A stretch of DNA of 15,745 nt from Promethearchaeota archaeon (GTDB taxonomy: Archaea; Asgardarchaeota; Lokiarchaeia; Sigyniarchaeales; SOKP01): the NCBI GenBank assembly GCA_048941265.1, contig JBHLNT010000096.1:1-15745 (forward strand), written 5' to 3'. Both the position numbers and the translations under genes were made by a program. The notes beneath the pieces are model-generated. The model had not been told where the DNA came from. It searched no databases and worked only from the letters and a program-made list of their open reading frames with translations. Of the stretch, positions 347 to 6,359 are shown piece after piece (position 1 is the stretch's first letter; each line of letters opens with the position of its first letter).

Positions 347-3124
347 CTAAGTTATAATAATTGCCGGTCTTCCAGGCAGAGCTTGACTTGCCTTTTTTTC
401 TTTTGAATCTTTTTCATTTAAAACTTCGATATCACATTGATATTTTTTATTTAGGATTGGTTTAATTTCTTGAAAGAATTGGAATTCTTCTTCAGAAGAA
501 AGTGAAATTTTAGAATATTTGCCAACATTTTTCAAGATTTTAGCAGTAATTTGACTGATACTTTTACTATATGGTTTTAAATCGCTTTCTTTCATCATTT
601 TTTTCATAATTTCTCCCTGATTTCTGGTATCATCCAGCGATGACATCAAAAGATCATAGAATTTAAATTTCCATTCCTTCGCGATAATGATCGAGATCTT
701 TGCTAACTTCTCTTGTTTCATTACTAATTTGATATTGTTAATATCGTCTCCAATATTGTTCATTAGCTTCCATTTAAAATCATTTTCTATAGTAAGAAGA
801 TTTTCGTTATAATTTGGCCATGAGGTTAGACTGGCATAATTTTTGTGTCCTTTCATCTCCCAGATTTCTTCGGTCATATGCGGAGCAATCGGATGCAGAA
901 GTAGAGTAAGTTTTTCGCAACATTCTTCGAAAATTTCTTTTATCACTCCTTCATTCTTATATTTAGTCAAATCAGACGTAAATTGGATGATATTGTTAAC
1001 CGCGTCCCTAATTGCGATTTTTTCGAGACTTTCCGTAACTAATTTTATGGTCTTGTTTAAATTATAGATGATAAGCATATCCCTTATAGTTTTTTTCTTT
1101 CGAATGTTTTCTGGAGGTTCGGAAAGCAATATAAAAGTGTTTCTTATGAATTTATAGGCAAAACCGACACCTTCTTCAGACCATTCCAATCCAGATTCAG
1201 GGCTAGCCCCAAAAAGGATAAAGAATCTCGCGCCATCTGCTCCATATTCATTCATAATCTCAATTGGATCAACAGTATTTCCGTAGGATTTACTCATCTT
1301 AACGCTCTTTAATACATATTTGGTTCCGCATTGTTTGCATTTCTCATCATGCATTTCGGCTTTCATAGCAAAACTTTCACATTTAGGACAATACGGATGG
1401 GCTTTATTTATCATTCCTTGAGTCAATAGGCGCTGAAATGGCTCATCAGCTTTTTGGAGCCCTAAATCTCGAGAAATTTTTGTAAAAAATCGAGCATAAA
1501 GAAGATGCATGACCGCATGTTCAACACCCCCTATATACTGGTCTACGTTCATCCAATAATTGACAATATCTTTTCTGTAAGGCAACTCATCGGTGTGAGG
1601 ATCGCAGAATTTAATGAAGTACCACGAGCTATCTACAAATGTATCCATTGTATCCGTTTCGCGTTTTGCTGCCTTGCCGCATTTGGGACATTTGGTATTC
1701 ACAAAACTCTTGCTAGTTTCTAAAGGATTTCCTTTTCCGGTAAATTTAACATCCTTAGGCAATTCAACAGGCAAGTCTTTATATGGCACGGGTACTATCC
1801 CGCATTCATCACAATAGATAATAGGTATGGGGCATCCCCAGTAGCGTTGACGGGAAATTAGCCAATCTCTTAACTTATAATTAATAGTAGCTTCACCCAT
1901 TCCTATTTTTTCTAATTTTTCAGTAATTGCATGAATAGCAGCACGATTTTCCATACCATTAAACTCATCAGAATTTACTAAAGTACCGTCTCCTTCATAT
2001 GAGCGCGTCATTTTGTCTAATTTTAACTCATAATCGAATGGTTGAATTACAATTTTAATCGGGATATCATATTCTTTTGCAAATTCGAAATCTCTTTGAT
2101 CATGTGCAGGTACAGCCATGACCGCACCAGCCCCATATTCAAAGATGACAAAATTACCAATATAAACGGGAACTTCTTCATTAGTCATAGGATTTACGGC
2201 ATATTTTCCGATAAACATTCCTTTTTTCTCAATTTCTATATCTGTTCTTTCAAATTTGTTTTGTTTCATAACTTCTCGATATAACTTTTCGAAATCTTTC
2301 TCATACTCAGTACCTTTAACCCATTCCCTTACCCATGGATGTTCAGGAGCGAAAACCATAAAAGTTACCCCATATAATGTGTCTGGTCTGGTAGTAAAGA
2401 TGTCAATTGTTCGATCTTCATCAACAATAGGAAACTTAATAATTGAACCCTCGGAACGCCCAATCCAATTTCTTTGCATAATCTTTACTTTTTCTGGCCA
2501 ATCTACAATATTCAATCCATCTAATAATTCTTCTGCATAAGCGCGTATCTTTAAAAACCATTGAGTCAAAAATTTCTGCTCTACATCAGAGGTACAACGC
2601 CAGCACTTCCCCCCCTGCACCTGTTCATTTGCTAGTACCGTATTACATTTATTACACCAATTCACATAAGAGCCTTCTCTATAAGCTAATTCTTTTTCAA
2701 AGAATTTTAAAAATAACCATTGATCCCATTTATAGTAATCTATATCATGGCTAAATATTAAACGGGTCCAATCATAAGAAAGCCCAATTCTTTTTTGCTG
2801 ATTTTTAATTGCTTCTATATTTGAATCAGTCCATTCTTCTGGATTGGCCCCATGATCAATTGCAGCATTTTCAGCGGGCATCCCAAAGGAATCATAACCC
2901 ATGGGATATAAAACATTAAATCCGCACATCCGTTTATATCGAGCATAAGCATCACCTATTGAATAGTTTCTAAGGTGACCTATATGAAGATGAGAGCTAG
3001 GATATGGATACATTTCAAGAACATAGAATTTTTCTTTTTTTTCTTCTTTAACCTCAAAAATTTTGTCCTTTTCCCATTTATCCTGCCATTTTTTCTCAAT
3101 TTTTTGAAAATTGTATTCAACCAT
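347..3124 (-). CDS. leuS: Leucyl-tRNA synthetase (bacterial-type core with archaeal-type C-terminal domain)
   Basis: 925 aa. Class I motifs [13 protein letters not shown] and KMSKS. Bacterial LeuRS signatures [25 protein letters not shown], editing-domain [10 protein letters not shown] and [61 protein letters not shown]. Ends [15 protein letters not shown]. Confidence 0.98.
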
Positions 3125-3132
3125 TATACTCT

Positions 3133-3145
3133 AACTCCCTTTTTT
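3133..3145 (-). promoter_or_regulatory. leuS ribosome-binding region (AAAAAAGGGAGTT; GGGAG 10 nt before the ATG)
   Basis: Minus strand reads ...TTTGAAAAAAGGGAGTTAGAGTATAATG. Shine-Dalgarno-like purine core at 3135-3139. Confidence 0.6.
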
Positions 3146-3236
3146 CAAATTTTTCATACACGTACTATTGTTTTGTTTTTTATTGCTTTTATTTTTTTCA
3201 CTTTTAAGATTTCAAGTAAGCTACGCAATATCTACT

Positions 3237-3315
3237 GACCTCTTTTTAGTAAAATTTACACACCGAGCAAACAAATCCGTGTTAAGGTTTTAAAAAGAGG
3301 TCTGATTTGCTTGCT
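3237..3315 (-). promoter_or_regulatory. Structured leuS leader RNA (candidate attenuator) with interleaved helices A:A' and B:B'
   Basis: Minus-strand order: A AGCAAGCAAAUC (3315-3304), B GACCUCUUUUUA (3302-3291), A' GAUUUGUUUGCU (3277-3266), B' UAAAAAGAGGUC (3248-3237). B:B' is a perfect 12-bp inverted repeat. A:A' gives 12 pairs with one G-U wobble that works only on the minus (leuS) strand. Confidence 0.75.
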
Positions 3316-3319
3316 TTCT

Positions 3320-3379
3320 TTATAATAATAATAATAATAGAACTTTGCTAAGAATTTGTAAACTTAAAGAGTTCTTCAT
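3320..3379 (-). CDS. Putative leucine-rich leader peptide of leuS (MKNSLSLQILSKVLLLLLL; 25-aa form MISNNN... if started at in-frame ATG 3397)
   Basis: ATG AAG AAC TCT TTA AGT TTA CAA ATT CTT AGC AAA GTT CTA TTA TTA TTA TTA TTA TAA. Nine of 19 codons are Leu, with six in tandem just before the stop. Same strand as leuS, stop about 195 nt upstream of its start, and directly followed by the structured element. Confidence 0.75.
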   Translation of the reverse strand: MKNSLSLQILSKVLLLLLL

Positions 3380-3422
3380 ATTATTATTTGAAATCATTAT
3401 TATATTCGATAAAATATTATGA

Positions 3423-3438
3423 ATTATAAATGTTTTCC
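3423..3438 (-). promoter_or_regulatory. Candidate archaeal BRE/TATA promoter for the leader-leuS transcript
   Basis: Minus strand GGAAAACA-TTTATAAT, with the TATA at 3430-3423. It ends about 25 nt upstream of the in-frame ATG at 3397, which fits a near-leaderless start. AT-rich context limits certainty. Confidence 0.5.
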
Positions 3439-3518
3439 TATTATCTTGAATTTAAATAGAACTTATAAAATTCTTGGAAGAAAGATTTTTTTTAAAAAAA
3501 GTACTAGTTAAAATAGGT

Positions 3519-4514
3519 ATGATTAAGAACATTCGCGTGTCTATAGGAAGCGCCTCCGTTCTGGGATTAGTCTCCAAAAAATTTCCTGTTCCTCCAATAA
3601 CATGTTATATTATGACTTATAAAGAAGGTCATTGTATTGCTAATTGTGGTTTTTGTCCCCAAGCGAGGGAATCAAAAAGCTCAGTCGATAAATTATCCCG
3701 TATCACTTGGCCTGTCTTTTCCTTTAAAGAGTTTTTAACCAAATTAGCGTACATGCCTCCTTCAAAAAAATTCAAAAGAATTTGTGTTCAAACTCTCAAT
3801 TATAAAGAAAATTTCGAGGATTTAATAGAAATAATTACCCGAATCAAGGAAATTTCAAATATACCTTTATCTATAGCAATTCCACCAATGTCGAAAGAAA
3901 AATTAAAGGAGCTTAAATTAAGAGGGGTTCAAAGGGTAGGGATTGCACTTGATGGGGCAACACCCGAAATTTTTGATAAAATTAAAGGACAGTATGCCCG
4001 AGGCCCCTACAAATGGCACCTTCATATGGAAGGATTAAAGAATGCTTTAGAAATATTTCCGGATAATTCCGTAACTACGCATATAATAGTCGGTTTAGGT
4101 GAATCTGAAAAAGCCATTCTTGAATTAATTAGGAAATTGCATGCTTTAAAAATACTTTCTTCTTTATTTGCATTTACGCCAATAAAAGGAACAACTTTGG
4201 AAAAAGTTCCCCAGCCTGAGCTTATTAAATTCAGGAAAATGCAGCTTGCCCGACACTTAATTTTGTGTGAAAATAAAGATTTAAAAGATTTTACCTTCAG
4301 TAAGAATGGTAATTTAATTAATATGAATATTTCTAGGTTAAAGTTAAGAAATATTATTGATGATACAAATGCTTTTTTAACTTCTGGATGCCCCGGTTGT
4401 AATAGACCTTATTATACTTCAAGACCTTCGGGTCCTATTTACAATTTTCCGAGAAAATTGAATGAGGATGAAAAAGAAGAAATTTATAAATCATTAGAAA
4501 AATTTATGATATAA
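3519..4514 (+). CDS. lipS2: Radical SAM lipoyl synthase component LipS2
   Basis: CxxxCxxC motif CIANCGFC, LSRITWP, and C-terminal TSGCPGCNRP matching the TxGCPxC(N/D)RP motif of Thermococcus-type LipS2. Adjacent to a lipoate ligase and LipS1. ATG 3519 (MIKNIRVSIGSA) is preferred over TTG 3474. Confidence 0.88.
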   Translation: MIKNIRVSIGSASVLGLVSKKFPVPPITCYIMTYKEGHCIANCGFCPQARESKSSVDKLSRITWPVFSFKEFLTKLAYMPPSKKFKRICVQTLNYKENFEDLIEIITRIKEISNIPLSIAIPPMSKEKLKELKLRGVQRVGIALDGATPEIFDKIKGQYARGPYKWHLHMEGLKNALEIFPDNSVTTHIIVGLGESEKAILELIRKLHALKILSSLFAFTPIKGTTLEKVPQPELIKFRKMQLARHLILCENKDLKDFTFSKNGNLINMNISRLKLRNIIDDTNAFLTSGCPGCNRPYYTSRPSGPIYNFPRKLNEDEKEEIYKSLEKFMI

Positions 4515-4531
4515 TACCGTTGAGGGATTAT

Positions 4532-5311
4532 ATGAATAAATGGCGGATCATACCTCTTGACGTGAGAAATGGTTATTGGAATATGGCCTTGGACGAGGCT
4601 GTTTTAAATGCAGTGTTAGAGAGGAAATCACTAAATACTGTTAGATTTTATAGATGGGAACCCTCTACGGCAAGTATTGGAAGAAATCAGAGTTTATCTA
4701 CAGAGATAAATATCGAATTTGCAGAACAGAAAGGATTTAATGTTGTTCGGCGTATTACTGGTGGTGGAGCTGTTTTTCATGACAATCGGGGTGAAATTAC
4801 TTATTCGATTATATGCCCTATAAAATTTTTAGAAGATTTAAATGCTATTAACGTACTTGACCAATTTGAAATTATTACGCAAGGAATAGTAGTCGGTTTA
4901 AATAATTACGGATTAAAGCCAAAAAAGGGAGTGATTCATTGTCCTGCGATTTTTCTCGATGGCAAAAAATTTTCAGGAAATGCCCAGGTAAGGAAGAAAG
5001 GCCACATTCTTCAACACGGTACCATTTTATTAGAAATTGATCCCGAATTAATGTATTCCGTATTAAAAGCTCCCGAGCAGGTCGGAAAATCACGGATGGT
5101 CAGATCAGTCCGTGCTAAATGTATAGGTATTAAAGATCAACTTCAGCATTATGATGAAGGACAATTTTTAAAAGCGTTGAAATTCGGTTTTGAAAATACT
5201 TTAGGGATTAAATTAGAAAGGGGTTATTTTTCTGATTATGAATTAAAGACTGCAGAACGGTTAGTTAAGGAGAAATATTCAAAAAAAGAATGGTTAATGA
5301 AATATGAATAA
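4532..5311 (+). CDS. lplA: Lipoate/octanoate-protein ligase, catalytic domain only (LplA-N/LipM-like)
   Basis: NMALDEA, SIGRNQ, VVRRITGGGAVFHD, KKFSGNAQ and QHGT motifs of the BPL/LplA/LipB family. About 259 aa with no C-terminal LplB-type domain. ATG 4532 is preceded by GAGGGA. Confidence 0.9.
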   Translation: MNKWRIIPLDVRNGYWNMALDEAVLNAVLERKSLNTVRFYRWEPSTASIGRNQSLSTEINIEFAEQKGFNVVRRITGGGAVFHDNRGEITYSIICPIKFLEDLNAINVLDQFEIITQGIVVGLNNYGLKPKKGVIHCPAIFLDGKKFSGNAQVRKKGHILQHGTILLEIDPELMYSVLKAPEQVGKSRMVRSVRAKCIGIKDQLQHYDEGQFLKALKFGFENTLGIKLERGYFSDYELKTAERLVKEKYSKKEWLMKYE

Positions 5312-6359
5312 AGCTACAGATCTATTGCAAAAAATAAGATCGAGCACCGCATCGTGGACTGATTATTCATCATTATTAAAGTTAGATAGGCAAGAAATGG
5401 AACCTTTTTTTCTTCTTGCCCAAGAAATAACGACGCAGAACTTCAAAAATATTTTAAAAATCTATAACCCTACTAATAAATTTCCTGCAATAAGTATAAC
5501 AGGGAACAATTGTGCGTTGCATTGCGAACATTGTAATGAAAAATATTTAAGGGGCATGAAATCGCTGACGACTAACAACGATCTAGAACGCTTTTTAATG
5601 GAACATTCCCGAAATGGAGGGATTGGTGCTTTAATTTCGGGAGGATGTGAATCAGATGGCTCTGTACCGTTAATTAATTATTTAGAAACAGTTAAAAAAG
5701 TGAAAAGAAATACAAATCTAATAATAAATACCCATTCGGGTCTAGTTAACTCGGAAACCGCACAAAAATTAGCAGAGGCAAAGGTGGATATAATTTCGTT
5801 TGATGTAAATTTAGATGAGCAAATCATTAAAAATATATATCACTTGGATAAAAGTGTTAATGATTATAAGCAAGCTATTGCGCTTTTAAAGAAAAATAAT
5901 TTAAATATTGTCCCACATATATGCATTGGACTTTATTACGGCAAAATCCATAAGGAATTGGATTCGATAAAATTTATCAAAGAAACAGAAATAAATCCCT
6001 CATTAATCGTAATCATAGCGTTAATTCCCCCAAAAAATCCTAAAGTTGAATTTAAAAGGCCAAAACCATTCGATATTGCTAAAATTATCGCTTTAATTAG
6101 GTTTGTATTTCCTTCTACAGAAATTTCATTAGGTTGCATGAGACCAAGAGGGGATATAAAATTTGAGTTAGAAAAGTTTGCTATTAAGGCAGGAATTAAT
6201 AGAATTGAACTCCCCTCGCGGGATACCTTAAAATGGGTTAAATCAATTAATCCTGAGATTCAATTTCAATTCTTTTCTGCATGTTGTGCTATTCCTAATA
6301 ATTATGAAGATTATGCAAAAAGTGAAGATTCAGATATTAAGAGATATTTAAGCATTTAA
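5304..6359 (+). CDS. lipS1: Radical SAM lipoyl synthase component LipS1
   Basis: SITGNNCALHCEHC (CxxxCxxC), LISGGC, VPHICIGL, LGCMRP (GC(M/A)R motif) and a C-terminal SACC (CC motif), typical of Thermococcus-type LipS1. Overlaps the upstream gene by 8 bp. Confidence 0.88.
   Translation: MNKATDLLQKIRSSTASWTDYSSLLKLDRQEMEPFFLLAQEITTQNFKNILKIYNPTNKFPAISITGNNCALHCEHCNEKYLRGMKSLTTNNDLERFLMEHSRNGGIGALISGGCESDGSVPLINYLETVKKVKRNTNLIINTHSGLVNSETAQKLAEAKVDIISFDVNLDEQIIKNIYHLDKSVNDYKQAIALLKKNNLNIVPHICIGLYYGKIHKELDSIKFIKETEINPSLIVIIALIPPKNPKVEFKRPKPFDIAKIIALIRFVFPSTEISLGCMRPRGDIKFELEKFAIKAGINRIELPSRDTLKWVKSINPEIQFQFFSACCAIPNNYEDYAKSEDSDIKRYLSI

Follow-up and report, generated by a model that had tools for sequence, protein, structure and literature searches.

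The leuS locus and its leader

The window, that is, the whole 15,745-nt stretch of DNA analysed here, belongs to a low-GC contig whose closest gene records are from Promethearchaeota (Lokiarchaeia). The element under study lies on the minus strand, between leuS (3124-347) and a divergent lipoyl synthase cluster. The leuS gene encodes a bacterial-type leucine-tRNA ligase of 925 aa (TIGR00396, 950.6 bits against a cut-off of 548), and neither a second leuS nor an archaeal-type leuS was found in a search of the genome. The bacterial-type score of LeuRS extends over residues 4-816 and archaeal LeuRS profiles match residues 603-924, which suggests a hybrid C-terminus; close relatives of the protein include Woesearchaeota and Nanoarchaeota records. 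The divergent lipoylation cluster (3474-6359) comprises LipS2, a lipoate-protein ligase-like gene, and LipS1, with further metabolic genes after it, and is ordinary. An ARAGORN scan of the window detects no tRNA. The earlier note on this DNA had proposed an Rfam search to exclude known motifs; at both gathering and E-value thresholds, no family (T-box included) matches the window or the leader, and the only hits are at chance level (E 1.5-10). The features of the leader and its gene are listed below in the order of transcription.

3423..3430, minus strand: TATA-box-like element, preceded by a BRE-like purine-rich stretch (3439-3431), 33 nt before the ATG of the uORF
3320..3397, minus strand: leader uORF of 25 codons, with six Leu codons at 3340-3323 and then TAA at 3322-3320
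3304..3315, minus strand: segment A, purine-rich, 5-16 nt after the stop codon, where a ribosome at that codon is predicted to cover it
3291..3302, minus strand: segment B, with a U5 tract at 3296-3292, within the 26-nt loop of A:A'
3279..3282, minus strand: ACAC, 5' arm of the inner helix in the B:B' fold
3266..3277, minus strand: segment A', U-rich, with a GGAUUUG core, the most conserved sequence of the family
3260..3263, minus strand: GUGU, 3' arm of the inner helix
3237..3248, minus strand: segment B', partner of B
3225..3232, minus strand: second partner for the 3' part of A, seen in the minimum free energy (MFE) structure only and weakly conserved, which extends the B:B' fold in the full-length RNA
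3125..3224, minus strand: spacer to the leuS start, A-rich, largely unstructured, free of U-runs, with a weak Shine-Dalgarno-like GGGAG near 3138
347..3124, minus strand: leuS

Two interleaved helices are conserved in a family of leaders

The earlier note had described two interleaved helices here, and their geometry is confirmed. A (3315-3304) and A' (3277-3266) form a 12-bp helix, in which one G-U pair would read as a C-A mismatch on the plus strand. The perfect 12-bp helix of B (3302-3291) with B' (3248-3237) is lengthened inward by ACAC (3282-3279) and GUGU (3263-3260) and holds A' in its apical loop. The same note was right that a bacterial intrinsic terminator is absent: there is no hairpin followed by a U-run in 3100-3540, and a U4 or longer tract occurs within 25 nt after B' in only 8 of the 46 homologues described below. 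A:A' and B:B' are the only helices of at least 10 bp in the 198-nt leader. Among dinucleotide shuffles, an interleaved 12-bp pair arises in 4 of 1000 and a single 12-bp helix in 114 of 1000, and the MFE of 3225-3325 has a z-score of -2.4, with 5 of 200 shuffles equally good. In the full-length fold with A free, the 3' part of A also pairs with 3232-3225; because this pairing is part of the full-length B:B' fold, the two folds are mutually exclusive. Inspection of B:B' by eye for a bulge-helix-bulge or K-turn shows a geometry unsuitable for either.

Leaders of this kind precede bacterial-type leuS at 9 of 55 loci from 61 related genomes and on two metagenome contigs, while most of these relatives lack the leader and have a promoter-like stretch directly upstream of leuS instead. 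On the minus strand of our locus, about 80 nt before the leuS ATG, a NUG-AAA-AAA stretch (3200-3190) recurs in the same place in leaders L002, L006, L052, and L010; it may be either a relic of the ancestral promoter that is seen in relatives lacking the leader or the start of a second short ORF.

Among 10 leuS leaders, A:A' is 93% paired with compensatory changes at 4 of 12 pairs, and B:B' is 86% paired with compensatory changes at 3 of 12, including a position that is C-G, G-C, or U-A. None of 500 shuffles is as good, and slid controls reach 37-52%. A covariance model built from these 10 leaders finds matches at 89 places in 80 of 135 genomes of this Asgard family, and of these 89, 41 are followed after 28-67 nt by an archaeal-type leuS; L021, which is partly similar in look, does not match the model. 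We analysed 46 leaders, consisting of the 10 training members and 36 of the other matches. The gene that follows is a bacterial-type leuS in 11, an archaeal-type leuS in 9, a short ORF of ~45-52 aa in 24, and another gene in 2; sets of 45 leave out L260, whose contig ends before the gene.

The earlier note had named covariation across homologous leaders as a check on its proposal, and both helices keep compensatory changes and prefer their own partner. In 45 homologues, own partners pair better than foreign ones for both helices (0 of 5000 permutations, p<0.001), although the shuffle and permutation p-values overstate the case because the homologues are kin. In a motif-anchored alignment, in which about 8 rows are mis-anchored, A:A' is paired in 385 of 460 cells (shuffled mean 81%, 0 of 1000 as high). 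The B:B' count of that alignment was fitted to pairing and is excluded as evidence, and no pair counts were taken from a sequence-only alignment of all 46 leaders, which misaligned the subgroups. The interleaved helices are a real, conserved RNA element.

Several further features are shared by the family. The distance from the uORF stop to the start of A is 1-8 nt (median 2, 46 homologues), and a U4 or longer tract lies in the A:A' loop in 44 of 46, with L279 mis-anchored in both counts. B:B' extends into A in most homologues, positions -1 to +4 of A' show 91-100% identity, and A' exceeds A in U content in 45 of 45. A tree of the 46 leaders, which has one long branch, a midpoint root, and a short alignment behind it, places the bacterial-type-leuS leaders in two groups, and a single clade is rejected (AU p 0.0009). 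Archaeal-type leuS appears in 0 of 9 and 0 of 5 listed genomes, all incomplete, of the two genera concerned. The tree suggests a portable cassette that was recruited twice to bacterial-type leuS. Several other genera that lack archaeal-type leuS also lack such a leader.

Copies of the switch also occur away from leuS. A second copy in the genome (L311:3013-3134, minus strand; G000:C351:12012-12133) and 23 homologues combine a Val/Leu uORF with a short ORF (~45-52 aa) that has a strong Shine-Dalgarno sequence, and the encoded small protein would be under predicted branched-chain amino-acid control. Further copies, L323 and L327, precede other genes (413 aa; 483 aa or more).

The leader uORF and its amino-acid run

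The uORF is probably leaderless, with a start site deduced from its promoter, because the TATA-like box 33 nt before its ATG fits the usual archaeal spacing. In 44 of 46 homologues such a box precedes an in-frame ATG by 29-36 nt, and in 32 of them by 33-34 nt. The uORF is 24-31 codons long in 44 of 46, and at least 6 of its last 8 residues are Leu, Val, or Ile in 45 of 46. Its second ATG is ACG in two close relatives, which makes the first ATG the conserved start. Training member L047 and its near-copy L048 have no ATG uORF at the expected place. A candidate second uORF, starting from the Shine-Dalgarno-like GAGGU in B' (TTG at 3228), was rejected; its start is not conserved in relatives.

In this genome, the uORF amino acid agrees with the downstream pathway at five loci: Leu with leuS, Leu with leuA, Ile with cimA, Trp with trpA, and Trp with trpB2. 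The four besides leuS came from a genome screen for short ORFs with amino-acid runs, which also returned many noise-like candidates. They are the leaders of leuA, cimA (citramalate synthase), trpB2, and trpA (L216, L217, L218, and L219, on G000 contigs C184, C113, C189, and C147). A matching uORF is present in relatives at 30 of 30 among the best 30 of 62 leuA matches and at 26 of 29 cimA loci. The cimA leaders have the same layout of A, U-rich loop, and A', and the leuA leaders fold differently, as a single long hairpin directly after the stop.

These data bear on the possibility that the small hydrophobic peptide itself is functional, or that the Leu run is a (TTA)n microsatellite, and that the helices are incidental. 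The peptide does have a hydrophobic tail, the genome has ~30% GC, and TTA is the commonest run codon (150 of 368). However, the runs mix TTA with CTC, TTG, CTA, and CTT as well as in-frame Val codons, the run amino acid changes with the downstream pathway, and both helices covary; we consider this very improbable, the least probable of the alternatives.

A separate set of leaders was observed near leuS in L111, L123, L179, L190, and L198 (also L085, L086, and L203), several of them labelled Woesearchaeota or Nanoarchaeota. They carry alternating Leu-Val uORFs that end in Leu-Leu and are followed by a hairpin, and in some an AUG in the 3' arm of the hairpin may open an intervening ORF. They are possibly a distinct DPANN leader family with a translational output.

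Folding of the leader with segment A free or masked

When 60 or 70 nt after the stop are present and A is free, A:A' forms with a probability of 0.98, and it is absent when +1 to +12 are masked. From 85 nt on, P(B:B') is 0.95 with A free or masked alike. B:B' is the more stable helix (-20 versus -13 kcal/mol), A:A' persists in only 8 of 45 homologues when the MFE is taken at 112 nt, and the pseudoknot-free refolding barrier from A:A' is ~18 kcal/mol, which is an upper bound. The earlier note had supposed that a ribosome over A decides between A:A' and B:B', and that a single structure regardless of blocking A would speak against a switch. Part of this holds: A lies by the stop codon, where a terminating ribosome would cover it because A begins 1-8 nt after the stop, and both helices are conserved. 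A choice at equilibrium does not hold, as the final structure is the same whether A is blocked or not, whereas the structure formed during transcription, at 60-70 nt, does depend on A. Because B:B' wins at equilibrium in either case, the switch, if real, is co-transcriptional and kinetic.

Masking A during transcription also changes the predicted accessibility of A'. When the RNA is exposed up to 23 nt beyond the start of A', its U-core is unpaired with a probability of 0.09 if A is free and 0.55 if A is masked; the masked value is clearly higher in 37 of 45 homologues, and this leuS leader changes from 0.0 to 0.6. Transcription pauses have the consensus G-10, Y-1, G+1. The start of A' (3278-3268, minus strand) fits it, as do about half of the homologues, and a pause there could let the ribosome catch up.

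A full 12+12-bp pseudoknot, which the earlier note had offered beside the two-state switch, is unlikely. Two 12-bp stems, each longer than one helical turn, joined by a 1-nt first loop are topologically implausible, and B:B' overlaps A in most homologues. A partial pseudoknot is possible as a refolding intermediate. More broadly, the functional unit might be a pseudoknot, stable or partial, or else a site bound by a protein such as LeuRS or a regulator, and the uORF might be secondary. The core A:A' and B:B' helices share no base in this leuS leader, and the GGAUUUG core of A' is conserved beyond the needs of pairing. An actinobacterial Leu-uORF element, LEU, offers a parallel in which the Leu codons, in the account given in the accessible part of PMC1262725, left regulation unaffected. 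Besides the topology and the overlap, the fixed distance from stop to A argues for the ribosome instead, as does the agreement between run amino acid and pathway at five loci. We regard such a unit as quite improbable, ranking ahead of only a functional peptide or microsatellite.

Proposed leucine sensing and its output

We propose that the leader is a leucine-sensing, ribosome-read attenuator of leuS in which A:A' acts as an antiterminator that hides the U-rich A' from the termination nuclease aCPSF1/FttA, and we assign this reading a probability of roughly 0.5. Its sensing half, a ribosome-read leucine sensor, is very probably correct, and, granted such a sensor, an FttA output is slightly favoured. 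Here we infer that the uORF is translated, that ribosomes stall on it, in which direction the switch works, and that FttA reads it. If a ribosome stalls on the Leu run, A would be available to pair with U-rich A' as soon as that is made, and transcription would continue. A ribosome that arrives at the stop codon would sit over A, so that the U-rich loop and A' stay exposed, probably to cleavage by aCPSF1/FttA and termination. B:B' would form afterwards, in transcripts that have been read through, and would sequester the U-tract in B.

The genome encodes aCPSF1 (TIGR03675, 870 bits). A Lokiarchaeal aCPSF1 terminates transcription at U4 tracts in Methanococcus, as stated in the available part of PMC8716108, and archaeal U-tracts need no hairpin, according to the accessible text of PMC13675443. 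FttA favours a U at -23 and U-rich sequence at -30 to -36 relative to the 3' end of the RNA, according to the portion of PMC11616081 available to us. The U-richest part of the leaders is the stretch from the loop to A'; at +71 to +95 the RNA is A-rich and contains a U4 tract in 0 of 45. We scored the leaders with an FttA-like score, which is a crude construction of our own that partly mirrors the positions of U-tracts, themselves common in an AT-rich genome. Three registers emerge from this score, placing the 3' end of the RNA near +14, +25, and +37 of A'; in 43 of 45 leaders the best ones fall between +7 and +25. In this leuS leader, the scores at +14 and +37 are equal, and the binding site of the +37 register is A' itself. 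The +25 and +37 registers require an unpaired A', and these registers, which A could gate, score at least 7 in 22 of 45 and 29 of 45 leaders. The strongest register (+7 to +17) scores at least 7 in 45 of 45, but it uses loop U-tracts that are unpaired in both states (P 0.81 free versus 0.82 masked), and A' is then still inside the polymerase. Because the best register (+14) is open in both states and A' is still in the polymerase, we hold FttA-dependent attenuation at only about even odds. In addition, the loop U's are also explained by their pairing with B', and the conservation of B:B', despite its secondary role in the FttA model, counts against that model. Since leuA leaders fold differently, one output may not fit all leaders.

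The main rival keeps the same leucine sensor and is closest to the view of the earlier note. In it, B:B' is the OFF fold: with A covered, B:B' would form at once and stop transcription or destabilise the transcript, through release at a hairpin lacking a U-tail or through recognition by a nuclease, and A:A' would delay it until the polymerase has escaped. B:B' covaries as strongly as A:A', has the greater stability and the refolding barrier given above in its favour, and has a layout like that of bacterial antiterminator/terminator pairs. On the other side, the U-run after B' is missing in 38 of 46 homologues and no conserved reader sequence is found there; B is open in the A:A' loop, so that B' could invade without a large barrier; and cimA leaders keep A:A' and the U-rich loop without a comparable conserved B'. 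We judge a B:B' OFF fold unlikely, though it is the foremost alternative to the FttA output.

The output might instead be translational: in one of the two states, a pyrimidine segment (B or A') would pair where the ribosome binds to start leuS, in the manner of the leaderless sORF attenuators of mycobacteria. By sequence, the purine-rich stretch that precedes the leuS ATG offers B 8 bp of pairing, some cimA and leuA leaders of the genus have a masked MFE in which the Shine-Dalgarno region is covered, and the small-ORF members have strong Shine-Dalgarno sequences. Yet B' ends tens of nucleotides before the start codon (~110 nt in this leuS leader), and most leuS members have a weak Shine-Dalgarno sequence or none. 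Moreover, no group pairs better with own than with foreign start regions, in a comparison that placed L052 in the wrong group, while the same kind of test does detect both real helices. A cognate preference for the start region is seen neither for the loop nor for A' (p 0.38-0.99 across 45 leaders; p 0.46 across 23 of 26 cimA leaders). We therefore rejected Shine-Dalgarno sequestration as a general output, there being no pairing signal, and consider translational attenuation improbable for the leuS leader, less so than a pseudoknot or protein-binding site.

Comparison with known leader systems

Leader-peptide attenuation is established in bacteria, where the classical transcription attenuators include E. 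coli leuL, trpL, and pheM-pheST. The leaders described here resemble these in their short uORF with a run of cognate codons, in the alternative helices by the stop codon, and in their position before synthetase or biosynthetic genes. They differ in lacking a hairpin-plus-U-tail terminator, in carrying the U-tract inside the loop of the first helix, in a uORF that is probably leaderless behind a TATA box, and in having no Rfam match. Rho-dependent leader-peptide attenuation is represented by E. coli tnaC. The proposed logic is shared, in that the position of the ribosome governs the access of a termination factor to pyrimidine-rich nascent RNA; here, however, the factor would be the nuclease aCPSF1/FttA, a homologue of CPSF73 and INTS11, and access would be controlled through an RNA helix rather than by direct ribosome cover. 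Attenuators have been predicted for Streptomyces leuS, and Rho-dependent attenuation has been proposed for mycobacterial cys leaders (PMC1262725, accessible part).

The mycobacterial polycysteine 'ribulon', as presented in the available part of 10.1101/834739, consists of leaderless sORFs, as the uORFs here probably are too, and these likewise end in an amino-acid run and serve several genes of one pathway. Its sORFs sequester the ribosome-binding site (10.1101/834739), whereas no such pairing signal is seen in this leader family. The actinobacterial LEU element, in the text of PMC1262725 that was available, shares a Leu-run uORF, interleaved helices read as a pseudoknot or alternative hairpin, and the lack of a terminator. 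In LEU the Leu codons pair with leuA's Shine-Dalgarno box (PMC1262725), whereas the Leu run here has no conserved pairing partner and leuS starts 195 nt after the uORF stop. A base stem between Leu codons and a Shine-Dalgarno sequence is absent from the consensus fold and from folds with the codon run unmasked.

In archaea, the nearest precedent is the Rfam element leuA-Halobacteria (RF03001), a structured element named for its position before leuA. It is a predicted Leu-uORF attenuator, and we know of no experimental test of it. The 53-nt model comes from another phylum and has no match in the genome at E<=1, and none in the leader. The available portions of the main text of PMC5737381 do not contain leuA. 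The uORFs of Haloferax are documented in PMC7261190, the accessible part of which mentions no attenuation. Our literature search, with most subscription journals outside its coverage, found no demonstrated leader-peptide attenuation in archaea, Asgard archaea included. Its output aside, the leuS leader would thus represent a known kind of control in a domain in which we found no demonstrated case, with the predicted leuA-Halobacteria element as the nearest archaeal precedent; because that element is already a predicted attenuator, we withhold any claim to a first archaeal case.

Taken together, we tentatively picture, at somewhat less than even odds, Asgard amino-acid regulons built on portable ribosome-read cassettes, each consisting of a promoter, a leaderless uORF, and an RNA switch. 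As their output, the CPSF73/Integrator-type nuclease aCPSF1 would cleave the nascent RNA conditionally, and the cassette would have been recruited to bacterial-type leuS on two or more occasions, in lineages in which no archaeal-type leuS was found. A competition between ribosome and FttA for the elongation complex has been hypothesised (PMC11616081, available portion). A conserved family with a fixed spacing from stop to helix offers a direct test of this competition and of whether transcription and translation are functionally coupled in archaea. Should aCPSF1 prove to be the reader, the regulated use of a CPSF73-family nuclease for premature termination would predate eukaryotes, and bacterial-style attenuation would, if this is true, be wired to the precursor of eukaryotic cleavage-type termination.
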